This document shows positions 1 to 11,470 of a stretch of DNA of 11,635 nt, piece after piece. A model generated the notes under the pieces. It worked only from the letters and a program-made list of their open reading frames with translations. It did no database searches and had not been told where the DNA came from. This DNA is from a virus (Duplodnaviria; Heunggongvirae; Uroviricota; Caudoviricetes), in the IMG/VR virus record IMGVR_UViG_2660238190_000006. One strand, 5' to 3'. Position numbers and translations under genes: made by a program. The stretch's first letter is position 1. The number at the start of each line of letters is the position of its first letter.

Positions 1-1218
1 ATGAACAAACTGAGCGATACCTTGCTAAGGAAACTTCATGGTAAGCCAGCGGAGAAAAACACGTTTTATAGTGATGGCGGAAACCTGAGCGTGAAATATT
101 TAACATCAGGGAAATTGACCTGGTATTTCACATACAGGGCCGGAACGGGAAGGGAGACACGACCCGAACGCATTAAGCTGGGAAGTTATCCTGATCTGAG
201 CCTGAAAGCAGCCAGGGAAAAAGCCGCACAGTGTCGCACATGGCTGGCTGAGGGGAAAAATCCACGTCATGAGATGAATTACACCGTACAGGAAGCGTTA
301 AAGCCCGTAACGGTTGGCGATGCGCTCACCTACTGGCTTGAGTATTACGTAAAGGAAAACCGCGTGGATTATATCGCCCTGAAAAGGCGACTTAATAATC
401 ACGTAATACAGCAGATTGGTGCTATGCCGCTGGATAAATGCGAGCTACGGCACTGGCTGGCCTGTTTTGACCAGGTGGCAAAGCGAACGCCTGTTACTGC
501 CGGATTCGTGCTACAGGCGTGCAAACAGGCGCTTAAGTTCTGCCGTAGGCGGCGCTATGCAATCAGCAACGTTCTGGACGATCTGAACGTGGCGGACGTT
601 GGGAAAAAACCGGATATAAGCGAACGTGTCTTAAGTAACAAAGAACTTGGCGAATTATTGCAGGCACTGGACAAAAAAATATTTTCCCCTTACTACGTCG
701 CGTTAATCCGCCTCCTGATTGTCTTCGGAGCCAGGACGGTAGAACTGAGGCTATCGGAGATCGGGGAGTGGGATTTTACGGAAATGCTATGGACCGTTCC
801 GAAGGAGCACAGCAAAACGAAGGTCGCAATATTCCGGCCCATACCGGAAGCGATCCTGCCGTTCGTCACGCAGCTGGTGGAGCAGAACAGGCACACGGGC
901 TTATTGCTGGGGGAAGTGAAACAGGAGGCCAGCGTATCGCAGTATGGAAGATTAGCGCACAGGAGGCTTAATCATCCTCACTGGTCACTGCATGACATCC
1001 GGCGCACCTTTACAACCATGCTGAACGATTTAGGCGTTGATCCGCATGTCGTGGAGCAGCTTACAGGTCATCAGATGCCAGGAATTCAGCGAGTTTATAA
1101 TCATTCCCGTTATCTGGATGCTAAACGCAATGCGCTGGATATGTGGATGGAGCGGTTAGGGATACTGGCGGGAACACATGAAAACGTAACCACGCTACCA
1201 GTAGCCAGAAGAAAATAA
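1..1218 (+). CDS. int: Tyrosine site-specific integrase, P4-like
   Basis: 405-aa ORF starting at base 1. N-terminus (MNKLSDTLLRKLHGKPAEKNTFYSDGGNLSVKY...WYFTYR) resembles the arm-binding domain of P4-type integrases. C-terminal catalytic signature HDIRRTF...GHQ...RVYNHSRY fits the R..H..R..Y tyrosine recombinase motif. Confidence 0.9.
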   Translation: MNKLSDTLLRKLHGKPAEKNTFYSDGGNLSVKYLTSGKLTWYFTYRAGTGRETRPERIKLGSYPDLSLKAAREKAAQCRTWLAEGKNPRHEMNYTVQEALKPVTVGDALTYWLEYYVKENRVDYIALKRRLNNHVIQQIGAMPLDKCELRHWLACFDQVAKRTPVTAGFVLQACKQALKFCRRRRYAISNVLDDLNVADVGKKPDISERVLSNKELGELLQALDKKIFSPYYVALIRLLIVFGARTVELRLSEIGEWDFTEMLWTVPKEHSKTKVAIFRPIPEAILPFVTQLVEQNRHTGLLLGEVKQEASVSQYGRLAHRRLNHPHWSLHDIRRTFTTMLNDLGVDPHVVEQLTGHQMPGIQRVYNHSRYLDAKRNALDMWMERLGILAGTHENVTTLPVARRK

Positions 1219-1260: not shown

Positions 1261-1320
1261 ACAGATACAACATGCAACAATGAGCAACAATGAGCAACAA
1301 TGCGGAACAACTACGAACAA
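1261..1320. repeat. Six tandem 10-bp-phased repeats ending in AACAA (two exact TGAGCAACAA units); candidate Int/AlpA (excisionase-like) binding array
   Basis: Seen: acagatacaa / catgcaacaa / tgagcaacaa / tgagcaacaa / tgcggaacaa / ctacgaacaa with strict 10-bp register, in the int-alpA intergenic region. Function is inferred. Confidence 0.6.
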
Positions 1321-1602: not shown

Positions 1603-1791
1603 GTGTTAAGCACTGATCGGTTTATACGTGAAAAAGAATGCGAAAAGCTAACAGGCCTTAGCCGCTCATGCCGCTACCGCCTGGAAAAGGCCGGACAATT
1701 CCCATCACGTCGTAAACTTGGCGGTCGTTCCGTTGGCTGGTCTTTATCCGAGGTTCTGGCCTGGAAGGATAGCTGCAAGGCAGTTCATTAA
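1603..1791 (+). CDS. alpA: AlpA-family (Xis/MerR-like HTH) transcriptional regulator / excisionase-like protein
   Basis: 62-aa ORF with GTG start preceded by AAAGGGGG. Sequence ...KECEKLTGLSRSCRYRLEKAGQFPSRRKLGGRSVGWSLSEVLAWK... matches the AlpA pattern (tG.sr...Y.l...G.FP...lg.rsvgW...ev..W). Typical position immediately downstream of int. Confidence 0.8.
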   Translation: MLSTDRFIREKECEKLTGLSRSCRYRLEKAGQFPSRRKLGGRSVGWSLSEVLAWKDSCKAVH

Positions 1792-2483: not shown

Positions 2484-2617
2484 GTGGTCACCTATTGAAT
2501 TAGCCTTTCTATTGTTAGGTGGTCACCTTAACACAAGAGCACTTAAAAAAGCAAAGCCCCGCAAGTGTCATTACCACTCGCAGGGCTTCTAACCAACAAC
2601 GTAAACTAGGAGCCGTT

Positions 2618-2815
2618 ATGGTTGCTGTAAATCATATACCACACCTTGTACACACACAAACGGCCTTTGTGTGGCGTTTTCTGGCACTGAGTGCCGGAGA
2701 ATCTCAAATCATCCACGTAACCGCCTGGACGGAACGCGAAGCGCGTAGCCGTTGCCCGTCCGGTTGTGTTGCTGTATTCGCCGCCCGTATTCGTCAGGAG
2801 GTGCGCCATGATTAA
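2618..2815 (+). CDS. Icd-like host cell division inhibitor family small protein (tentative)
   Basis: 65-aa ORF from ATG 2618 with strong RBS AGGAG 5 nt upstream. Sequence MVAVNHIPHLVHTQTAFVWRFLALSAGESQIIHVTAWTEREARSRCPSGCVAVFAARIRQEV resembles, from memory, the Icd-like proteins annotated in P4-like prophages. The 2519 start of the tracked ORF was rejected. Confidence 0.55.
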   Translation: MVAVNHIPHLVHTQTAFVWRFLALSAGESQIIHVTAWTEREARSRCPSGCVAVFAARIRQEVRHD

Positions 2816-3020
2816 TCTGTCACTTACTGACCTTAACCGCATTCAGTTTCGTGAGAAATTCACAGGGCAGCTACTGGTCAATGTGGATAAAGGTCGCGTG
2901 GTGTGTAATTACCACTTACCAGATGAAGCAATTGTCGCCACAAGGGAATCATTACAGGAAATCACAAAACGTGCCGGAATGATTAACACGAATATTCAGG
3001 GGATGCTTTATGCACAATAA
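2808..3020 (+). CDS. Hypothetical protein (70 aa)
   Basis: ATG 2808 overlaps the upstream stop (8-nt overlap) with RBS AGGAGG 7 nt upstream; translationally coupled chain. No family recognised. Confidence 0.6.
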   Translation: MINLSLTDLNRIQFREKFTGQLLVNVDKGRVVCNYHLPDEAIVATRESLQEITKRAGMINTNIQGMLYAQ

Positions 3021-3474
3021 AACCACACCGGACGCAGCCGCCGAAGCCATCAAAACGCTGATGCACGCGCTGATTGATATTTCTGTTATCGCGGACAGGG
3101 CACATAAGCACGCCACCAGCGAAACAGAATATGCCGGTGCTTTCGTTCCTCACTCACTGGCTGTCATGCAATTTAGTGCTGATACGGCGCTGAATGAGGC
3201 CAAAGCTATCCTGATTGCTGATTGTGAAAATGGGGGGGTTATGCGTGATGATCGTTTTAATTCCCTGAAACAGGAATTTACCGGCGTTCCTGATGATGCG
3301 GCTGATGCGCTTTCGTCAATGCCAGAACTTATTAGAGCGGCTTTTTTCTTACTTTCCACGAGAGAATATAAATCAACGGGGCTTGATGTACTGAATATCG
3401 CCGCCGATTATGCGGAATATGTGGCAGAGGCGCGTTATAGAAGAAAATTTCCTGAGGATGTAAGCCATGCGTGA
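3010..3474 (+). CDS. Hypothetical protein (154 aa)
   Basis: ATG overlaps the upstream gene end; RBS CAGGGGA upstream. Alanine-rich, predicted helical. No family recognised. Confidence 0.65.
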   Translation: MHNKTTPDAAAEAIKTLMHALIDISVIADRAHKHATSETEYAGAFVPHSLAVMQFSADTALNEAKAILIADCENGGVMRDDRFNSLKQEFTGVPDDAADALSSMPELIRAAFFLLSTREYKSTGLDVLNIAADYAEYVAEARYRRKFPEDVSHA

Positions 3475-3700
3475 TATTTACCACCAAACAATAGACCGCG
3501 CATTTCTTGCACTTTCTCACAGTGAAAACATGCTGGAAATATTGCGCATATGGCTTGAAACACTTGGCGACAATGAACGCGACAAACAAAAATCAAGAAT
3601 TGCCACGGCATTAATAACGCTTCTTGAGCCTGTAATAATGGAACTGCAAGAAATAGATCTATTGCACGACAGATATAAAGAACAGCACACCGGAGAATAA
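3467..3700 (+). CDS. Hypothetical protein (77 aa)
   Basis: ATG 3467 overlaps the upstream stop (ATGCGTGA); RBS GAGGA 8 nt upstream. No family recognised. Confidence 0.6.
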   Translation: MRDIYHQTIDRAFLALSHSENMLEILRIWLETLGDNERDKQKSRIATALITLLEPVIMELQEIDLLHDRYKEQHTGE

Positions 3701-3705
3701 AAATA

Positions 3706-4005
3706 ATGAAACTTAAATATTCTGGCTTAACTGCCAGTGGCAACACTCACCCTAAATTTACGCGCGGTGATATTTACCGCGACCAGTACGGCGGCACGGT
3801 AATGATTAAGGGCGTGGAAGAACGGCGCGTAACCTACCGCCGTGAAGGTTACGAATATGATTGCGTGATGCCTGTTTATCAGTTCCGGCGTGATTTTTCT
3901 CTGGTACAGACCGCGCCGCATAACGTGCCCACCAGCAACGCCAGGGCACGGGCAAACATCCAGAAGCTGAAAACCATGGTTAACGGATTCAGGGGCAAGA
4001 AATGA
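3706..4005 (+). CDS. Hypothetical protein (99 aa)
   Basis: RBS GGAGA about 10 nt upstream; stop overlaps the replicase start (ATGA). No family recognised. Confidence 0.6.
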   Translation: MKLKYSGLTASGNTHPKFTRGDIYRDQYGGTVMIKGVEERRVTYRREGYEYDCVMPVYQFRRDFSLVQTAPHNVPTSNARARANIQKLKTMVNGFRGKK

Positions 4006-5402
4006 AAAGCGCACCGAACTTAAAAAAACAGCCTTACGACAAGATGACCGAAGTCATCATTTTTGCGGGTAGTGATGCGTGGGCACATGCGAAACAGTGG
4101 CAGGAACAGGACGGGCGACTGGCTGGCGATAATGTGCCTCCCATTGTGCTGGCTGATGATCAACTGGATGAACTGGCAGACCTGAGAATCATCGACGAGG
4201 GGCGCTATTGTGTCCGGCTGTACAAGGCAGGCCACATCAGGCCATCAAATATTAATGCCATTGCGCACAAGCTGGCGGCGGCGGGCGTAACTGATGCGAA
4301 TTATTACCCCGAAGGGATGCACAGCCATATGCGGGAGAACTGGCGCGAATACCTGGAACGGGTGCGCGGGAAAGAGCCGGCGGAAGAAAAAAACCACCAG
4401 CGAAAAACCACGCTACCGATGAGCGTTGGATCTACCGGATACGACACGCAACTGGATTACGTGGTTAAGGGGATTATTCCGGCGGTATCGCTATGCAGCA
4501 TATACGGGGCTAGCGGGTCCTATAAATCATTCCTTGCCGGATCGTGGGCGTGCCATGTTGCCACTGGTCGCCAGTGGGGAGGCCGCAGGGTTGCACATGG
4601 TGCGGTTCTCTATGTGGTTGGTGAAGGCGGTATAGGTGTTCCGCGTCGTGTAAAAGCCTGGGAGGTTGTGCACGATGAGCAGGTGAAAAATCTGTATCTG
4701 GTAAACCGCCCCATCTTTCCGGCTGCCCCGCTTGATGTTGATGAAATGGTTATCGCTGCCCGTCAGGTGGAGCGGGAAACGGGTAAACCTGTACGCATGA
4801 TTATTCTGGATACGCTGGCGCGTTGCTTTGGTGGGAATGATGAAAATGATTCCCGTGATATGGGGGCGTTTATCCGTGGTTGTGACGAACTGAAACGACG
4901 CACAGGGGCCACGGTGCTGGTGGTTCACCATTCCGGCAAGGATGAGACGAAAGGCGCGCGCGGTTCCAGTGCATTTCGTGCTTCGCTGGATGCTGAATAC
5001 CGGATACGCAGGGAGGACGCAGGAAGCGAAGCGCTGGTTATCTCATGCACCAAAATGAAGGACGCGGAGGAACTCAAAGAAGCCGCATATGACTTACGCG
5101 TGGTGGAGCTTTTTACCGACGCTGACGGTGAATTAATCACGTCGCTGGTGGTGGTGGATGATCCGCGCCCTCCTGTTGAACTGGAGCGCATCGAGGAGGC
5201 AGGGAACAAGACGGAAAACCATACCGCGCTATGGGGGTGCATCCGTTCACGCACACAGAACGGCGACAAGTGCACGATCCAGATGTTACGTGATGACATG
5301 AAAAAGCTGGGGTATGAAATGAAAAACTTCCGGCGCTGGCTGTACAAGCTGGAAAAAGATGGGGTTATTCGTATCGATGGGGATGATGTAGCGCCGCTAT
5401 AA
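4002..5402 (+). CDS. Replication protein: RecA/DnaB-like P-loop ATPase (RepA/AAA_25-type helicase) with an N-terminal domain of unknown function
   Basis: 466-aa ORF. Walker A GASGSYKS (in IYGASGSYKSFLAG), Walker B-like hydrophobic-D stretch MIILDTLARCFGG, and HHSGKD (sensor-like) typical of RepA/DnaB-family replicative ATPases found in satellite pri-rep modules. Iteron cluster lies immediately downstream. Confidence 0.8.
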   Translation: MKSAPNLKKQPYDKMTEVIIFAGSDAWAHAKQWQEQDGRLAGDNVPPIVLADDQLDELADLRIIDEGRYCVRLYKAGHIRPSNINAIAHKLAAAGVTDANYYPEGMHSHMRENWREYLERVRGKEPAEEKNHQRKTTLPMSVGSTGYDTQLDYVVKGIIPAVSLCSIYGASGSYKSFLAGSWACHVATGRQWGGRRVAHGAVLYVVGEGGIGVPRRVKAWEVVHDEQVKNLYLVNRPIFPAAPLDVDEMVIAARQVERETGKPVRMIILDTLARCFGGNDENDSRDMGAFIRGCDELKRRTGATVLVVHHSGKDETKGARGSSAFRASLDAEYRIRREDAGSEALVISCTKMKDAEELKEAAYDLRVVELFTDADGELITSLVVVDDPRPPVELERIEEAGNKTENHTALWGCIRSRTQNGDKCTIQMLRDDMKKLGYEMKNFRRWLYKLEKDGVIRIDGDDVAPL

Positions 5403-5593
5403 AAGTGAGGAGCAAAAGCGAGGGGGATAGAAAGAGGGCCAAAATTAGCCCGCTCCCCCTCACTTTTCGACCTGTATACATCCTCAAAAGTGAGGGGTAA
5501 AAAAATACTTATGAAACACACACATAGAAAAACCGAAAATCCCAACTGCGACGAAGTGAGACGCTTGAAAAAGTGAGGCGAAAAAGTGAGAGG
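5401..5593. promoter_or_regulatory. Iteron cluster (AAAGTGAGG repeats, both orientations) with an AT-rich spacer; putative replication origin and/or operator
   Basis: Seen: AAAAGTGAGG at 5401-5410, inverted copy at 5455-5467, AAAAGTGAGGGG 5486-5497, GAAGTGAGAC 5553-5562, AAAAAGTGAGG 5568-5578, AAAAAGTGAGAGG 5581-5593, plus degenerate AAAGCGAGGGGGA 5415-5427. An AT-rich tract at 5497-5545 lies between copies. Position directly 3' of the replicase gene is typical for satellite/PICI origins (inference). Confidence 0.55.
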
Positions 5594-5602
5594 TTGCGAG
5601 AA

Positions 5603-5854
5603 ATGACCCAAAAACGCAGAGACAGAACAGAGCCAAAATATAAAGCGTTAGACATGACTGAGCACACCTTAAAGGTGGCAATCAGAACGATAGACCGCCA
5701 CACGCGGGAAGGATACGCGAAGGAACATCCCGACCTGATAAGCGCATTCATGACCACGGCGGCGGCAAACTTTGCCACGCTGACAGAACGGGAGATTGCC
5801 GAAGCGGAACAGGTAACAACCATCAACGTTAAAACCGGAGAGTTGGAATCATGA
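5603..5854 (+). CDS. Hypothetical protein (83 aa)
   Basis: ATG 5603 with RBS GAGAGG (inside the last iteron); the tracked ORF's upstream start at 5573 lies within the iterons and was rejected. No family recognised. Confidence 0.55.
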   Translation: MTQKRRDRTEPKYKALDMTEHTLKVAIRTIDRHTREGYAKEHPDLISAFMTTAAANFATLTEREIAEAEQVTTINVKTGELES

Positions 5855-6156
5855 GCGAACCAAAATTTGGTGAAAAACTTTACAAGCACAACGGACGGAT
5901 CACGATTCAGCAAATAAGCGCAGCTACACCAGGCTGGTGGGTTGAAACAGACGAAGGATCCTCACCCGTGGCATCATGGGCGCTTTGTGTGCTTAGTTAC
6001 CCTGACCGCGATGTGTATCAGGATATTCTGCCTGTGATATCCACTGATAAAGGCATGAAGCCCGTAGACATCAAAAACATGGGTTTTCAGTGCGTAATGC
6101 TCACTGAAAAAATGATGGAAGAGATGAAAAAGAACAACGCCGGATCGCTTCACTGA
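5851..6156 (+). CDS. Hypothetical protein (101 aa)
   Basis: ATGA overlap with the upstream gene; RBS GGAGAG 9 nt upstream. No family recognised. Confidence 0.6.
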   Translation: MSEPKFGEKLYKHNGRITIQQISAATPGWWVETDEGSSPVASWALCVLSYPDRDVYQDILPVISTDKGMKPVDIKNMGFQCVMLTEKMMEEMKKNNAGSLH

Positions 6157-6165
6157 GGTGGCAAT

Positions 6166-6576
6166 ATGACAGCACAAATTGCAGCTTACGGGCGGCTGGT
6201 GGACGACCCGCAGGTAAAACAGACCAGCAAGGGTACACCGATGACGCTGGCGCGTATGGCGGTATCGCTGCCATGCAGCCAGGCACAGGATGGACAGGCG
6301 ACGTTATGGCTATCGGTCATCGCATTTGGTAAGCAGGCCGACTTCCTGGCTAAACATCAAAAAGGCGACGTTGCCAGCGTATCCGGCACGATGCAGGTCA
6401 GCCAGTGGACCGGACAGAACGGGGAAACGCGGCAGGGTTATCAGGTTATTGCAGACAGCGTAATCAGTGCCCGTGCGGCACGTCCTGGTGGGAGCCGACG
6501 CAAGACCACAGGCACACAGGGTAATCAGCCACCAGCGGGAGGCGATGACCCTTACGGTGATGATATTCCGTTCTGA
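6166..6576 (+). CDS. ssb: Single-stranded DNA-binding protein (SSB-like)
   Basis: 136-aa ORF. OB-fold-like N-terminal region, Gly/Gln/Pro-rich linker and C-terminal acidic tip DDPYGDDIPF, matching the conserved DDDIPF tail of bacterial SSB. RBS GAGGTGG upstream. Confidence 0.75.
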   Translation: MTAQIAAYGRLVDDPQVKQTSKGTPMTLARMAVSLPCSQAQDGQATLWLSVIAFGKQADFLAKHQKGDVASVSGTMQVSQWTGQNGETRQGYQVIADSVISARAARPGGSRRKTTGTQGNQPPAGGDDPYGDDIPF

Positions 6577-6588
6577 GGGGTGGGGACG

Positions 6589-6861
6589 ATGGTACATGAC
6601 CGCATAGCGGAAGAACTGGAGGCGAAAGGCTTTTACCGGAGAGCGTCGGCGCGATGGGGTGAAGTCATGCAACTGGTGGAGACAGACAAGGAACGGCATC
6701 ACATCACGATGCGACGGCTGGAATGTTCCAGGAAGGCACAGAGGCCACCGGAGCCGCCGGATAATTACGGAGACCTGAAAAAGGCGGTCGATCGCACTTA
6801 TGCCGAAATGGGTATGGATGGTGCTGGTGATGAAATATGGCGAAATTACCAGGACAGATAA
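6589..6861 (+). CDS. PerC-family-like transcriptional activator (tentative)
   Basis: About 90-aa ORF. AEELEAKGFYRRASARWGEVM resembles the PerC/Pch N-terminal signature (LE..G.WRRAA..W) as remembered. ATG 6589 with GAGGGG RBS is preferred over GTG 6580. Followed by a terminator. Confidence 0.5.
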   Translation: MVHDRIAEELEAKGFYRRASARWGEVMQLVETDKERHHITMRRLECSRKAQRPPEPPDNYGDLKKAVDRTYAEMGMDGAGDEIWRNYQDR

Positions 6862-6867
6862 TCACAC

Positions 6868-6890
6868 AGCCGGAGCAATCCGGCTTTTTG
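6868..6890 (+). terminator. Rho-independent terminator after the PerC-like gene
   Basis: Seen: AGCCGGA-GCAA-TCCGGCT stem-loop followed by TTTTT. Confidence 0.65.
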
Positions 6891-6918
6891 TCATGTTTTG
6901 TAAATTATTTGTTCGTGG

Positions 6919-6933
6919 TTGTTCCACGTTGTT
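6919..6933. repeat. 15-mer TTGTTCCACGTTGTT (copy 1) within three tandem TTGTTC-containing decamers
   Basis: Seen: exact 15-mer shared with 11370-11384. Local context tatTTGTTCgtggTTGTTCcacgTTGTTCgctg. Confidence 0.5.
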
Positions 6934-7111
6934 CGCTGACCGGATCGGCATATTTTACCCGAACTGAATCATGATTATTCTCGCCCGTGGTGCCAGGACG
7001 CTGGGGCCACTTTCCCGCCTGTTAATGTGCCCGCCAATATTCATTACCAGGCGGGAAAACGATCGGTGCGATTGCTGATTTCCTTATGAAAAACGGTTGA
7101 GTGTTTGCCGC

Positions 7112-7148
7112 GTCCTGGAGTTCCTTACTTAACTTCAGGACTTTTTTT
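7112..7148 (+). terminator. Strong intrinsic terminator/attenuator hairpin ending in T7, directly abutting the capsid start codon and sequestering its RBS
   Basis: Seen: 11-bp stem GTCCTGGAGTT (7112-7122) pairing with AACTTCAGGAC (7131-7141), one G-U pair, 8-nt loop, then TTTTTTT (7142-7148), then ATG at 7149. The AGGA RBS (7137-7140) is inside the 3' arm. Confidence 0.6.
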
Positions 7149-8306
7149 ATGCCGAGAATAATCGAATTACGCCAGCAGAAAACCGCCATTAAAAATCAGA
7201 TGCGCGACATGCTGGAGAACGCGGAAAAAGAAAACCGCAGCCTTAACGATGCTGAGGGCGCAAAATTTGACGAATTACGCGCTAAAGCTGAATCCCTCGA
7301 TAAAGACATCTCCCGCCTTGAGGCCGTTGCTGACGAAGAGCGCAGTAAACCAGGCAAAAACAGCCAGACCACTGACCCCGCCGAACTACGTCACTACATT
7401 CTGACAGGTGAAACCCGCGCATTGAGTACAGGCGTTCCCGCTGATGGTGGTTATACCGTTATCCCCGAACTGAACACCGAAATCATGCGAATGCTGACGG
7501 ATGAATCCACCATGCGCCGCATCTGTACCGTGAAGAAAATCAGCAGCAACGAGTTTAAGCAGCTTGTTTCCGCTGGCGGTGCGACCGTTAACCACGGTGA
7601 AGAGGGTAAGGCACGCGAACAGACCAGCACCCCGCAGATTAACGAGGTGAGCATTAAGCTGTATCCGGTCTATGCGTACCCGCGCACCACGCAGGAAATC
7701 GTGGATTTTTCCGATGTGGACATCCTTTCATGGCTGACGGGCGAGATTGGCGACACCTTCACGGAAACCGAAGAAAGCGATCTGGTTGTGGGCGACGGTG
7801 ACAAAAAAGCAAAAGGCTTTTTATCCGTACCCCGTGCAGAGAAGAACGACAAAGAGCGTGATTTTGGTACGTTGCAGGTAATTAAACCTTCCGAATCTCT
7901 GGCGTGGACATCTGCGGACCCGCTGATCGACCTGAAATTTGCATTACGTAAAAAATACCGCAAAAACGCGGTCTGGGTGGTTAACTCCACGACGGCGGCA
8001 AAACTCCAGAAGGTGAAGAACGCGAACGGTGATTACATCTGGCGTGACCGTTTACAGGCGGGTGATCCTGATACGTTGCTGGGCCTTCCGGTCGAATATC
8101 TGGAGTTTATGCCGGATAACGTTATTGCCCTGGGTGACTTCAAACGCGGTTACTACATTGTTGATCACGAAACAGGTGTTCGCACCAGACCGGACAACCT
8201 CACAGAGCCGGGCTTCATCAAAATTTTCGCGCAGAAATATTTAGGCGGTGGCGTGGTGGATTCGAACGCGATCAAGATTCTGGAACTGCCACAGGACGAC
8301 GATTAA
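7149..8306 (+). CDS. Major capsid protein, HK97 fold, with N-terminal coiled-coil scaffold (delta-like) domain
   Basis: N-terminal coiled coil RIIELRQQKTAIKNQMRDMLENAEKENRSLNDAEGAKFDELRAKAESLDKDISRLEAV matches the HK97-family MCP delta-domain pattern. GDGDKKAKGFLS fits the conserved G.G...p.Gil region. Start 7149 chosen over GTG 7101; start is uncertain. Confidence 0.85.
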   Translation: MPRIIELRQQKTAIKNQMRDMLENAEKENRSLNDAEGAKFDELRAKAESLDKDISRLEAVADEERSKPGKNSQTTDPAELRHYILTGETRALSTGVPADGGYTVIPELNTEIMRMLTDESTMRRICTVKKISSNEFKQLVSAGGATVNHGEEGKAREQTSTPQINEVSIKLYPVYAYPRTTQEIVDFSDVDILSWLTGEIGDTFTETEESDLVVGDGDKKAKGFLSVPRAEKNDKERDFGTLQVIKPSESLAWTSADPLIDLKFALRKKYRKNAVWVVNSTTAAKLQKVKNANGDYIWRDRLQAGDPDTLLGLPVEYLEFMPDNVIALGDFKRGYYIVDHETGVRTRPDNLTEPGFIKIFAQKYLGGGVVDSNAIKILELPQDDD

Positions 8307-8316
8307 CAGCATACAG

Positions 8317-8345
8317 AAGGGGCTTAAAAGCCCCTTTAGTGTTTT
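8317..8345 (+). terminator. Hairpin (partial terminator/attenuator) between capsid and protease genes
   Basis: Seen: AAGGGGC-loop-GCCCCTT followed by T-rich TAGTGTTTTA. Could tune capsid versus protease expression (inference). Confidence 0.4.
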
Positions 8346-8918
8346 ATGGGTGAAAAAATTATGAAGAGTATGGAAATCCGGTCATCGGAAATCACCACCA
8401 GCGGAGCCGGTACGCTGACGGGCTACATTGTTCGCTGGGATAAGCTTTCAGAACTGTTATGGGGTGAGTTTTACGAAAAATTCCAGCGGGGGGCGTTTAC
8501 TGAATGGCTTGCGGCGGGTAATGACGTTCGCGGCCTGTATGAGCATGACCACAGCATGTTACTGGGGCGCACCCGTTCCGGCACGCTGAAACTGGAAGAG
8601 GACGAAACAGGGTTACGCTTTGAACTGACCCCACCGGATACCAGTACAGGGCGCGACGTTATCGAACTGGTTAAACGAGGTGATATATCCGGCATGAGCT
8701 TTGGCTTTCGTTCCCGTAAGGATGTATGGGATACCACAACAGATCCATGCGTGCGCACCGTGCTGGTGGCGGAACTGTACGAAATTACCGTTACATCCGT
8801 ACCGGCTTACCCTGATTCCGACGTGGAGCTGGCCCGCCGTTCCCTGTATGAGCAGCACCCCGAAAAAATGCCGCGTGCGGATAATCGCCGCTGGTGGGCG
8901 GATTTAGCGGGGGTGTGA
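8346..8918 (+). CDS. Prohead maturation protease, HK97 family (S78/U35-like)
   Basis: Motifs GYIVRWDKLSELLWGEFYEKFQRGAF, LYEHDHSMLLGRT, GLRFELTPPDTSTGRDVIELVKRGDISGMSFGF and YEITVTSVPAYPDS match the HK97 prohead protease family pattern. Start may instead be ATG 8361 or 8370. Confidence 0.85.
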   Translation: MGEKIMKSMEIRSSEITTSGAGTLTGYIVRWDKLSELLWGEFYEKFQRGAFTEWLAAGNDVRGLYEHDHSMLLGRTRSGTLKLEEDETGLRFELTPPDTSTGRDVIELVKRGDISGMSFGFRSRKDVWDTTTDPCVRTVLVAELYEITVTSVPAYPDSDVELARRSLYEQHPEKMPRADNRRWWADLAGV

Positions 8919-10438
8919 TATGTGGCCTTTCCAGGGTGTGCCCGCACGTAAAAGGGCCGATGCGTGGCAGACCCATTGAGCTGGAGCCGTGGCAGCAGTT
9001 CGCCTTTGCGTGCATCCTCGGCTTTAAGGTTAAGGCCACCGGACGGCGCAAATACACGAGCGCCTTTATCGAAGTGCCGCGCAAAAATGCGAAATCCACG
9101 ACCGCCGCGATTCTGGCTAACTGGTTTCTGATTATGGAGAACGGTCAGCAGGATATCTACACCGCAGCGGTGAGCCGTGACCAGGCGCGGATCGTCTTTG
9201 ATGATGCGCGTCAGATGTGCCTTTTATCCCGACCGTTACGCAGGCGGGTGAATATTCAGGCGCATAAGGTGATGCACCCGAAAAGCAACAGCCTGTTAAA
9301 GCCGCTGGCAGCAAAAGCGGCAACCATCGAGGGAACAAACCCCAGCCTTTCCATCGTGGACGAATACCACTTGCACCCCGATAACGGCGTTTATTCCGCG
9401 CTTGAGCTGGGGATGGGCGCACGCCCCGAAGGGCTGTTATTTGCTATTACCACATCAGGCAGTAACGTCGTTTCAGCCTGTAAGCAGCACTATGATTATT
9501 GCTGCCAGATCCTGGACGGCGAAGAGGTCAACGATTCAATTTTTGTACTGATTTACGAACTGGACGACGAAAACGAGGTTGATGATCCGGCGATGTGGAT
9601 AAAGGCGAACCCTAATATTGATGTTTCCGTGGATCGTGAAAAACTGGCCTCAACCATCCAGAAAGCGCGGGGTATTCCGTCGCAGTGGGTGGAGATGATG
9701 ACAAAGCGATTTAATATCTGGTGCCAGGGGGCTACCCCGTGGATGGGTAACGGCGCATGGGCTGAGTGTGCCGGAACGTTCACGGAGGAAGATTTACACG
9801 GCCAGGAGTGTTACGCGGGGCTGGACTTATCATCAACCAGCGATATTTCCAGCGTGTGCTATGCCTTTCCGGTCGGTAAAACCATTATGCTGGTTTCCCG
9901 TCACTATCTGCCGGAATTTCAGCTACAGAACCCCGCCAATAAAAACCGCGCCATCTATCGTCAGTGGGCTAAAGCAGGCTGGATACGCACAACGCCTGGC
10001 GACTGCATTGATTACGACCGGATCAGAGATGACATCATGCAGGACGCGGAGAAATTTAATATCAGGCTGGTGGGCTTTGATACGTGGAACGCCACGCATC
10101 TCAGAACGCAATTACAGGGGGCAGGTTTTGAGGTGGAGCCGTTCCCGCAAACCTACCTCAGATTCAGTCCGGCGGCGAAATCGTTCGAAGTTTTTGTTAA
10201 CCGCAGGGTGATTGTGCATCGTGGCGATCCGGTGTTGTCCTGGTCGATGAGTAACGTCGTGATGCAGAGTGACGCGAACGCCAATATCAAGCCGAACAAG
10301 AAAAAATCACCGAACAAGATAGACCCGAGCGTGGCGGCGCTGATGGCGTTTGGTACATTCCAGGCAGAGCATGAGGATTTTGCTTTTGATATAAGCGACA
10401 GCCACCGCCAGAAACTGGAAGAATTTAGCGGGGTGTAA
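8894..10438 (+). CDS. Terminase large subunit (Terminase_1 / COG4626-type), with a short N-terminus
   Basis: Motifs recognised: LEPWQQF; P-loop EVPRKNAKSTTAA; AAVSRDQARIVF; Walker B SIVDEYHLH; ITTSG; WIKANPNIDVSV; GLDLSSTSD; C-terminal KPNKKKSPNKIDPSVAALMAF. Start ambiguous (GTG 8894 overlapping the protease end, GTG 8936, or ATG 8960). Confidence 0.85.
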   Translation: MGGFSGGVICGLSRVCPHVKGPMRGRPIELEPWQQFAFACILGFKVKATGRRKYTSAFIEVPRKNAKSTTAAILANWFLIMENGQQDIYTAAVSRDQARIVFDDARQMCLLSRPLRRRVNIQAHKVMHPKSNSLLKPLAAKAATIEGTNPSLSIVDEYHLHPDNGVYSALELGMGARPEGLLFAITTSGSNVVSACKQHYDYCCQILDGEEVNDSIFVLIYELDDENEVDDPAMWIKANPNIDVSVDREKLASTIQKARGIPSQWVEMMTKRFNIWCQGATPWMGNGAWAECAGTFTEEDLHGQECYAGLDLSSTSDISSVCYAFPVGKTIMLVSRHYLPEFQLQNPANKNRAIYRQWAKAGWIRTTPGDCIDYDRIRDDIMQDAEKFNIRLVGFDTWNATHLRTQLQGAGFEVEPFPQTYLRFSPAAKSFEVFVNRRVIVHRGDPVLSWSMSNVVMQSDANANIKPNKKKSPNKIDPSVAALMAFGTFQAEHEDFAFDISDSHRQKLEEFSGV

Positions 10439-11170: not shown

Positions 11171-11369
11171 GATGCTTTTACCCCATTGGGGGAAAGGTAT
11201 TACGATAATCATAACACCTACCGAACAGGTAAAGCCCACCAGCCTGATTAACGTTTAACCGGAAAAAAATTCCGGTAGGTGGGGATCCCCATATCGACAT
11301 TAACGCCCCTCATGAATTGGTGCGCTTCCCCCTGGAAAGATGATCCGCCTGTATATTTCTTGTGTCTAT

Positions 11370-11384
11370 TTGTTCCACGTTGTT
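11370..11384. repeat. 15-mer TTGTTCCACGTTGTT (copy 2)
   Basis: Seen: exact match to 6919-6933; shared TATTTGTTC prefix as well. Confidence 0.5.
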
Positions 11385-11470
11385 TCATACAGTGCACCGA
11401 ACGGTGTAGTCACTGGTGTAGTCATTTTGCGATTTTTGGCACTTTTTGCGGTGAAAATTATTTAATTAAA

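Follow-up and report, generated by a model that had tools for sequence, protein, structure and literature searches.

A structured leader with competing helices before the capsid gene of an Escherichia coli satellite, a candidate attenuator abutting the start codon

Phage-inducible chromosomal islands of the capsid-forming kind (cf-PICIs) spread between species through released tail-less capsids that capture foreign phage tails, which raises the question of how such an island controls the making of its capsids. The literature that we searched held no description of the timing or dosing of cf-PICI capsid production. We addressed this question in a stretch of 11,635 nucleotides (the window; IMG/VR record IMGVR_UViG_2660238190_000006), an E. 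coli cf-PICI of the EcCIEDL933 type according to its Pfam matches and RefSeq annotation, in which a hairpin (H3) and a run of seven U residues (U7) directly precede the start codon of the capsid gene. A first-pass annotation had suggested, as a hypothesis, a promoter-proximal terminator under antitermination or RNA-switch control that would keep the head genes silent until a helper-encoded or PerC-like factor acts. The reading we lean towards, and judge to be just on the probable side, is that H3 and U7 form the expression platform of a conserved, structured capsid-operon leader that works as an attenuator. The anatomy, covariation and energetics reported below come from this analysis, and the transcription start site (TSS) comes from the literature.

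H3 has an 11-pair stem with five G-C pairs (GTCCTGGAGTT, 7112-7122, with AACTTCAGGAC, 7131-7141), in which pair 7 is a G7118.U7135 wobble, and an 8-nt loop (7123-7130). The stem followed by T7 can be read directly from the sequence and was also found by a terminator scan of 6400-7600, which returned five terminator-like sites where 1.3 +/- 1.3 were expected; the single nucleotide once placed between the T-run and the ATG is not there, the actual gap being 0 nt. With a G+C-rich stem, a loop of 8 nt, U7 at distance 0 and a TSS upstream, the element has the geometry of an intrinsic terminator, and H3 alone folds at about -16 kcal/mol (z = -2.78; 3 of 200 shuffles were as stable). The same hairpin holds the Shine-Dalgarno (SD) sequence. 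AGGA (7137-7140), 8 nt from the ATG and within the 3' arm of H3, is the sole purine-rich stretch in 7120-7148, in agreement with the earlier view that the only plausible ribosome-binding site lies inside the stem. ATG 7149 is taken as the capsid start over the in-frame GTG 7101 on the strength of the RefSeq annotation of the E. coli FORC_042 island and of N-terminal conservation, with M1 and E6-K11 of the capsid protein invariant. Neither the base of H3 (GUCCUG/CAGGAC) nor the T7-8 run varies among the ten distinct 3' ends of the window lineage, which include that of its more distant member L128, where the H3 loop and the linker have diverged and one A-U pair is swapped to U-A while the stem base and U-tract are kept.

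A promoter-proximal position for this terminator is supported by published Cappable-seq data for E. coli O157:H7 EDL933, which carries the same island. A single gene-specific TSS is listed there for 'phage major capsid protein', at 1687918 on the plus strand, and was seen in seven of eight culture conditions, all uninduced (PMC10469882, table S5). The EDL933 capsid ATG is at 1688124, with the TSS 206 nt upstream; the equivalent start in the window is 6944, which places H3 and the U-tract at +169..+205 and makes the terminator promoter-proximal, as the first-pass annotation had supposed.

The leader was then compared among about 170 loci fetched from species-representative genomes, IMG/VR and metagenomes, with capsid proteins 54-99% identical to that of the window, and alignment A2 was made of 97 distinct leaders plus L128, 98 in all. 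A common plan emerged, in which a box (TTTTGTAAATTATT), three phased lineage-specific repeats, a TATxxT hexamer and a first hairpin (H1) make up the 5' part, and a second hairpin (H2), a pyrimidine-rich linker and a hairpin on an invariant CGUC just before the ATG make up the 3' part. Type A, the window lineage (E. coli/Shigella and the more distant L128), is the only one with a U-tract after the 3' hairpin. Type B, the majority with 80 leaders, has GGUUUC-A-CGU...ACG-GAAACC and then ACUCC-AUG.

From the mapped start to the last U, the window leader (6944-7148, 205 nt) folds at -76.3 kcal/mol (z = -5.48), a stability that 0 of 200 shuffles reached. The inner-stem pairs of H1 over the 98 leaders are U-A in 80 and C-G in 18, C-G in 80 and A-U in 18, and A-U in 75, G-C in 18 and C-G in 5, with zero unpaired; 95.4% of cells pair, compared to 28-61% with the partner slid. 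G.U pairs in H1 indicate an RNA rather than a DNA element. Across the 80 type B leaders, which come from many hosts, H1 is almost invariant, and this near-invariance points either to a factor that recognises H1 or to the constraint of pairing with two partners. H2 starts 0-4 nt after H1 and is formed in essentially all 98 leaders. Its arms come in 41 different pairs, typically of 9-13 contiguous bp, with loops or three-way junctions of 34-63 nt span. In the window its arms are a perfect 11-bp inverted repeat (TTTCCCGCCTG/CAGGCGGGAAA) with five further inner pairs. This repeat had been noticed from the start, although its two arms were misplaced by 2 and 11 nt (they lie at 7011-7021 and 7048-7058). 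It was rejected as an operator-like element, since its sequence varies freely while pairing is kept, and is the leader hairpin H2. The hairpins are also in the wrong position for a cos site, expected between HNH and terS, or for a replication origin, expected beside rep.

H1 has a second partner within the terminator. Positions 6993-7001 and segment Z at 7110-7118 form nine contiguous Watson-Crick pairs (CCAGGACGC with GCGUCCUGG), and Z holds the first seven bases of the H3 5' arm. This helix, H1:Z, is the only complement of at least 9 nt joining 6944-7099 to 7100-7148, a length attained in 7 of 5000 shuffled versions of H1. The CGUC of Z is invariant in all 98 leaders, and the GACG:CGUC core is nearly so, the exceptions being G.U pairs, one at one of the four positions and two at another. 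The flanking pairs of alignment A2 change in concert, columns 45-170 being U-A in 75, C-G in 18 and G-C in 5, and columns 47-168 A-U in 80 and G-C in 18, with zero unpaired. Overall, 81.5% of H1:Z cells pair, compared to 23-51% when slid. An equivalent helix is formed in type B from the H1 loop and 3' arm (AGACGUGAG:UUCACGUCU), and in the B' lineage by GACGGGA:UCCCGUC. Columns 45-47 thus covary with both H1 and a distant partner, indicating two mutually exclusive structures that are each selected. The leader thus resembles an attenuator in having a second helix that cannot coexist with the terminator and has been kept in evolution. These results give the RNA-switch idea a covarying antiterminator pairing between H1 and the terminator 5' arm, and folding for alternative antiterminator structures, which had been suggested as a check, returned this same helix in competition with the terminator.

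Folding of nascent transcripts showed when the two structures compete. When the 3' end lies at 7118-7133, H1:Z is either the minimum free energy structure or tied with it, whereas from 7139 on H3 is ahead by about 12 kcal/mol. Once the terminator is complete, the OFF fold (H1+H2+H3) reaches -69.8 kcal/mol in the window compared to -56.2 with H1:Z enforced (ON), with corresponding values of -67.9 and -57.9 in the common E. coli variant and -54.6 and -50.3 in type B. The near-equal energies of ON and OFF in nascent transcripts point to a decision that is kinetic and finely balanced.

In the mechanism we propose, transcription would start ~160-205 nt upstream, at the mapped TSS or at a predicted second start near 6987, and H1 and H2 would fold first. 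As Z emerges, it would either pair with its H1 partner, opening H1, or await its partner in H3. In the latter case H3 and U7 would halt RNA polymerase immediately before the AUG, and in transcripts that are read through H3 would still bury the SD. Formation of H1:Z would remove 7 of the 11 nt of the H3 5' arm and free AGGA, so that termination and SD burial would both be prevented, and this one helix would turn on transcription and translation of the capsid protein, the most abundant structural protein, together. H2 would act as a sequence-free spacer hairpin that draws H1 and Z together. Equilibrium would lead to OFF, while before the H3 3' arm exists ON would equal OFF in energy, and whatever stabilises or melts H1 could tip the outcome. 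Such a switch probably sets the number of capsids made.

Published data indicate that the trigger is island- or host-encoded, or purely stochastic, and not helper-encoded. A search for a signal encoded in the leader found no conserved open reading frame (ORF). Leader-peptide attenuation was rejected, as the ATG at 6971, though ~90% conserved, has no SD; neither its peptide nor its stop is conserved, the ORF having 35 codons in the window and 10 in type B and being absent in several lineages. L128 lacks the mini-ORF that the window has at 7086-7100. Pfam and PHROGs scans of the island ORFs gave no RNA-binding family. A broader proposal, which we put forward tentatively and consider possible but on the unlikely side, is that H1-H2-H3 represents an undescribed class of cis-regulatory RNA of capsid-forming satellites, a self-contained kinetic switch that is fed by a constitutively active promoter and would explain helper-free capsids. 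If this were true, a fixed small fraction of transcripts would escape termination and give spontaneous packaged tail-less capsids without a helper, and an island or host factor binding the near-invariant H1 would raise the escape fraction after AlpA induction.

Several points weigh against attenuation as the function of this leader. Termination and read-through at H3 and U7 in vivo are events that we infer. The covariation comes from about three independent lineages (A, B and B'), so that sequence counts overstate the evolutionary events, and a protein-bound inverted DNA motif could in principle mimic the H1/Z covariation. Variation in the H3 helix amounts to one A-U/U-A swap and two G.U/G-C changes (five distinct rows), and its covariation is not significant, a score as high being reached by 97 of 500 shuffles; the terminator helix is supported instead by the strict conservation of its base and of T7-8. 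Most E. coli copies also have an A.C mismatch at H3 pair 8. At equilibrium OFF is favoured by 10-14 kcal/mol in the window lineage, so that reaching ON takes either a factor or a kinetic route. The 3' hairpin of type B buries a presumed SD, lacks the U-tract and is not a terminator, so with most related islands lacking this tract termination is not the conserved function; that hairpin is moreover invariant (RNAalifold) and so carries no covariation information. Finally, the type C leaders of AT-rich islands are short and have no structure.

The promoter region holds further elements of possible regulatory interest. The mapped promoter is odd, with a -35 element, TTGTTC (6909-6914), that is the first of the three phased repeats and a -10 region, TTCGCT (TTCACT in EDL933), that is the third. 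A second promoter, sigma70-like in its signature, is predicted downstream (Table 1). In its TATTCT hexamer T1, A2 and T6 are invariant in the 98-sequence alignment, and 52 of the 97 leaders counted have a -35-like TTTAC(A/C/T) hexamer; no TSS was recorded at this site in uninduced EDL933 by Cappable-seq. The site is predicted to be an induced promoter with a start near 6987 or, at +33..+38, a sigma70 pause element. A TSS at ~6987 guessed from the invariant TATxxT was superseded by the Cappable-seq TSS equivalent to 6944. Overlapping TATTCT is GATTATTCTCG (6973-6983), an 11-nt perfect complement of capsid codons 2-5 (CGAGAATAATC, 7153-7163). The duplex of the two is calculated at -15.1 kcal/mol (z = -4.7), is weaker in the common E. 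coli variant and is absent in type B; as modelled, it would lock the start region only in 6944-initiated transcripts and not in those from the downstream promoter.

On the upstream side, the separate terminator described in the first-pass annotation is present just past the PerC stop codon, as a hairpin at 6868-6885 followed by T5. Other lineages mostly have a terminator-like hairpin and T-tract, for example CCCCTGTCTCTGACGGGGGTTTTCTTT, over the third repeat and the likely start region (~2880-2906 in L007, with equivalents in L008, L009 and many type B/C loci), and with it transcription of the upstream operon probably ends directly over the capsid promoter; at 6935-6949 of the window there is a weak equivalent. 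Box TTTTGTAAATTATT occurs once in the window and is found also in AT-rich islands without a structured leader. Arrays of TTGTTC-N4-TTGTTC are located at 1275-1320 (minus strand, between int and alpA), 6909-6934 (plus strand) and 11360-11385 (plus strand, near the right end), giving 12 matches where 1.5 were expected, a count that 0 of 200 shuffles reach. The repeat sequence is lineage-specific and tracks AlpA similarity across islands. A k-mer cluster search for repeats in 22 islands was noisy (null counts of 3-25 per island), with suggestive arrays upstream of int. We consider the TTGTTC arrays candidate AlpA or integrase arm-type sites, and we infer that they are bound by AlpA, which would act on the capsid promoter. 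The known roles of AlpA are transcriptional activation and autoregulation (PMC6092414), and the window AlpA falls in the PHROG 'excisionase and transcriptional regulator'.

Because the TTGTTC repeats occupy the core promoter from -35 to -10, they are among the features that favour protein-mediated processive antitermination in the style of lambda PR'-qut-tR', an explanation that we regard as unlikely. Here AlpA or another small island protein would load onto polymerase at the promoter, and the modified polymerase would ignore both H3 and a second terminator-like hairpin that follows the capsid gene, with RNA pairing secondary. Lambda PR', which gives 6S RNA and is controlled by Q, has a leader of 194 nt. 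As in lambda, a constitutive promoter is followed by a leader of ~200 nt, an intrinsic terminator and the head genes; the repeats between -35 and -10 and the -10-like elements downstream (TATTTT at +8..+13 and the invariant TATxxT at +33..+38) would be the putative factor-binding element and pause signal of a Q-type module. In addition, particles of EcCIEDL933 were purified after its reproduction had been driven by overexpressing alpA (10.1101/2025.02.11.637232). However, a search of the 16 island ORFs with Pfam and PHROGs found no Q-like protein and no member of any antiterminator family. AlpA was rejected as a Q-like antiterminator, as the Pseudomonas link is a coincidence of names: the P. 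aeruginosa AlpA is unrelated to the window protein, which is Phage_AlpA/excisionase-like. A PDB sequence search with the window AlpA at E <= 1 matched no chain of an RNA polymerase-AlpA antitermination complex, and the sole specific match was 8c3t, an AlpA-family phage regulatory protein, the rest being chance matches. Processive antitermination also leaves unexplained the covarying H1:Z complementarity, an RNA antiterminator that lambda does not use, as well as the translation of read-through transcripts with the SD in H3.

Translation is the centre of another explanation, in which H3 is mainly a translational operator or an mRNA-stability element and the U-run is incidental or an A/U-rich translation enhancer. 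It draws on the SD inside H3 in the window and on 63 distinct type B 3' regions (62 nt each), in which the CGUC hairpin buries the presumed SD with no U-tract. It draws as well on the type D leaders (L053, L057, L059 and L121), which carry a CAUG-centred motif (CAUGYRGG / CCUGCAUG) in triplicate at ~150 nt upstream of the capsid start, unrelated in sequence to the other types. One motif copy overlaps the SD and the 5' end can pair directly with the SD region. Type D shows the same three-partner competing-helix logic in an independent leader type, which also speaks for the switch proposed above. An RBS-sequestering hairpin governed by an upstream hairpin is also known from com/mom of phage Mu, where opening of the sequestering hairpin depends on the adjacent upstream hairpin and on the Com protein; unlike Mu, the island has no Com equivalent identified, and the window-lineage hairpin is also a terminator. 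We find a mainly translational role decidedly unlikely, as a G+C-rich stem of 7-11 bp followed by 7-8 U comes near the ideal of an intrinsic terminator and the U-tract is invariant in the lineage although the loop and linker have diverged. This explanation overlaps with attenuation, since both need H1:Z, and differs from it only on whether polymerase stops.

The terminated leader could alternatively be a constitutive stand-alone small RNA (sRNA) that acts in trans on helper, host or island transcripts, for which P4 CI RNA and lambda 6S/oop are analogues. The constitutive TSS in uninduced cells, the very stable 205-nt product with a terminator hairpin at its end and the exposed, nearly invariant H1 loop all fit an sRNA. 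Against this, H1 has its conserved complement in cis, within the leader itself, and in most lineages, which have no such terminator, no discrete sRNA would be made; no trans target was found, although no search aimed at one was made. We hold this role to be improbable. A search for an sRNA annotation of the capsid-leader locus gave nothing relevant. In P4 immunity, premature termination is controlled by CI RNA together with seqA, seqB and seqC, through a pairing that causes termination and acts in trans after RNA processing. The cf-PICI leader resembles this in being a satellite system with a constitutive promoter in which leader RNA-RNA pairing controls termination, but its partners lie in cis and their pairing would avert termination. 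The elements are unrelated, and cf-PICIs are not P4-like.

Switching of the operon by a helper-phage late regulator or antiterminator, for which only the architectural resemblance to lambdoid late operons speaks, is very improbable, because cf-PICIs including EcCIEDL933 make packaged tail-less capsids in non-lysogens without an inducing helper, so that a helper antiterminator is not required, and because overexpressed alpA was the means used to drive EcCIEDL933 reproduction when particles were purified (10.1101/2025.02.11.637232). The supposition that the head genes stay silent until a helper factor acts is contradicted by the same capsids. PerC is a doubtful switching factor, with some sister islands having the same promoter and leader without perC (L004) and the EcCIEDL933 PerC-like protein being reported to be without effect on LEE1 (PMC11773190 citing Porter 2005). 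An N/boxB-like system was also rejected, since boxA is absent and no small arginine-rich protein was matched in Pfam or PHROGs; the orf83 N-terminus, MTQKRRDR, is too weak a signal to be counted. The first interpretation is thus partly supported, right in kind about a promoter-proximal regulated terminator and an RNA switch and wrong on the helper.

Attenuation as proposed here can be compared with established examples. Attenuators and riboswitch platforms such as trp, pyrBI and the T-box are built from a terminator, an antiterminator and an anti-antiterminator. Like these, the cf-PICI leader has three mutually exclusive partners, an intrinsic terminator just before the gene, and a kinetic decision between near-isoenergetic alternatives while the terminator 3' arm is made. 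Unlike these, it has no conserved leader peptide or recognisable aptamer, and its terminator 3' arm holds the SD with the U-tract abutting the AUG, so that one helix controls both levels. The leader also resembles the put RNA of phage HK022 in having two adjacent stem-loops of ~70 nt early in the RNA, a nearby -10-like element and terminators downstream (PMC9378689). However, nhmmer with the 98-leader profile found no match at E <= 10 in two stretches of HK022 (12.5 kb, covering putL, putR and Q), and blastn-short of putL/putR against the leaders gave only 9-nt chance matches (E = 3), and homology to put was rejected for lack of sequence similarity in both searches. Unlike the put stems, H2 varies freely in sequence, length and branching, and H1 pairs with a terminator arm, which put does not need.

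The leaders were found solely in front of cf-PICI capsid genes. Among 50,697 phage records the window leader had no match, and the type B leader matched three, of which at least the best looks like a mis-filed island. Rfam gave 0 matches at the gathering threshold in the whole window, and the four matches in 6850-7200 at E <= 10 were far below threshold and meaningless. The conserved leader RNA motif, with ~100 distinct variants in Enterobacterales-type islands, is absent from Rfam and not previously described. While the class of mechanism, attenuation plus RBS sequestration, is known, what is new is the element, together with its distribution and its design for dual action. The leader provides a testable control point for capsid production, with a promoter that fires uninduced, a terminator that hides the RBS and a conserved competing helix, and as its motif marks the start of the cf-PICI packaging operon it is useful for satellite annotation.

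The surrounding genes follow the cf-PICI order of int, alpA, replication module and HK97-type packaging module, all on one strand, the packaging module of the EcCIEDL933 type being capsid/protease/portal/connector/HNH/TerS/TerL. The leader segment 6860-7200 (341 bases) is 100% identical to the FORC_042 island, and of the 421 E. coli genomes that matched (5,426 searched), 354 have this segment at 95% identity or more; it is always chromosomal. Positions 2546-8931 of the window have 99.4% identity to the FORC_042 island, which is located between roxA and phoQ. Coordinates of the leader features and island genes are collected in Table 1.

Table 1. Features of the capsid leader and of the island, in window coordinates.
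Feature	Position	Strand	Description
Integrase	1-1218		same direction as all island genes
AlpA	1603-1791		Pfam Phage_AlpA
RepA-type helicase	4002-5402		
SSB	6166-6576		
PerC-family protein	6589-6861		
Upstream terminator	6868-6890	+	stem AGCCGGA/TCCGGCT, loop GCAA, then TTTTT; ends PerC unit
Box TTTTGTAAATTATT	6896-6909	+	kept upstream of capsid gene in nearly all cf-PICI lineages
Three TTGTTC repeats	6909, 6919, 6929 (6909-6934)	+	exact 10-bp phase, spanning -35 to -10
Capsid TSS	6944	+	by homology to EDL933 1687918 (Cappable-seq)
Predicted second promoter	6954-6981	+	TTTACC 6954-6959, 16-nt spacer, TATTCT 6976-6981; 5 nt before H1
Hairpin H1	6987-7010	+	GUGGU-G-CCAG-GACG-CUGG-G-GCCAC; GACG loop nearly invariant
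Antiterminator partner CCAGGACGC	6993-7001	+	H1 5' arm, loop and 1 nt; complement of 7110-7118
Hairpin H2	7011-7058	+	arms 7011-7021/7048-7058, inner 7023-7027/7042-7046
Hairpin H2b	7061-7080	+	small, weak; 7 pairs, 3 wobbles; window lineage only
Segment Z GCGUCCUGG	7110-7118	+	pairs with 6993-7001, or 7112-7118 with 7135-7141
Hairpin H3, terminator stem-loop	7112-7141	+	from sequence reading, terminator scan and folding
U7 tract	7142-7148	+	0 nt from stem, 0 nt from capsid ATG (7149-7151)
HK97-fold major capsid protein	7149-8306	+	first gene of packaging operon
Prohead protease	8346-8918		terminase downstream

Beyond the leader, a 9-bp G+C-rich hairpin, GAAGGGGCTTAAAAGCCCCTTT followed by AGTGTTTTAT, lies at 8316-8337 between the capsid stop codon and the protease gene and has its counterpart at 9457-9478 in L001; it may be a partial terminator or a stabiliser that sets the capsid:protease ratio. 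The Cappable-seq table for EDL933 (NZ_CP008957.1) lists further TSSs at 1681887 and 1681896, just upstream of alpA, and one at 1692589 inside terS that is assigned to terL (PMC10469882), the latter suggesting an internal promoter in the packaging operon. About 3 kb is missing from the window compared to FORC_042 and EDL933, with the junction at 8925-8931 (compare L001 10072-13117), and the genes lost are portal, head closure, connector, HNH, a small ORF, TerS and the start of TerL. The 3' end of the protease gene is thereby joined straight to TerL, which indicates that the packaging module is defective in this copy. Behind alpA, a 247-aa ORF (1849-2592) encodes a Cys/Ser/Arg-rich protein without a Pfam or PHROG match. 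This region is only ~90% identical to FORC_042 and in part unalignable, a divergence that fits published mentions of a variable gene downstream of alpA.

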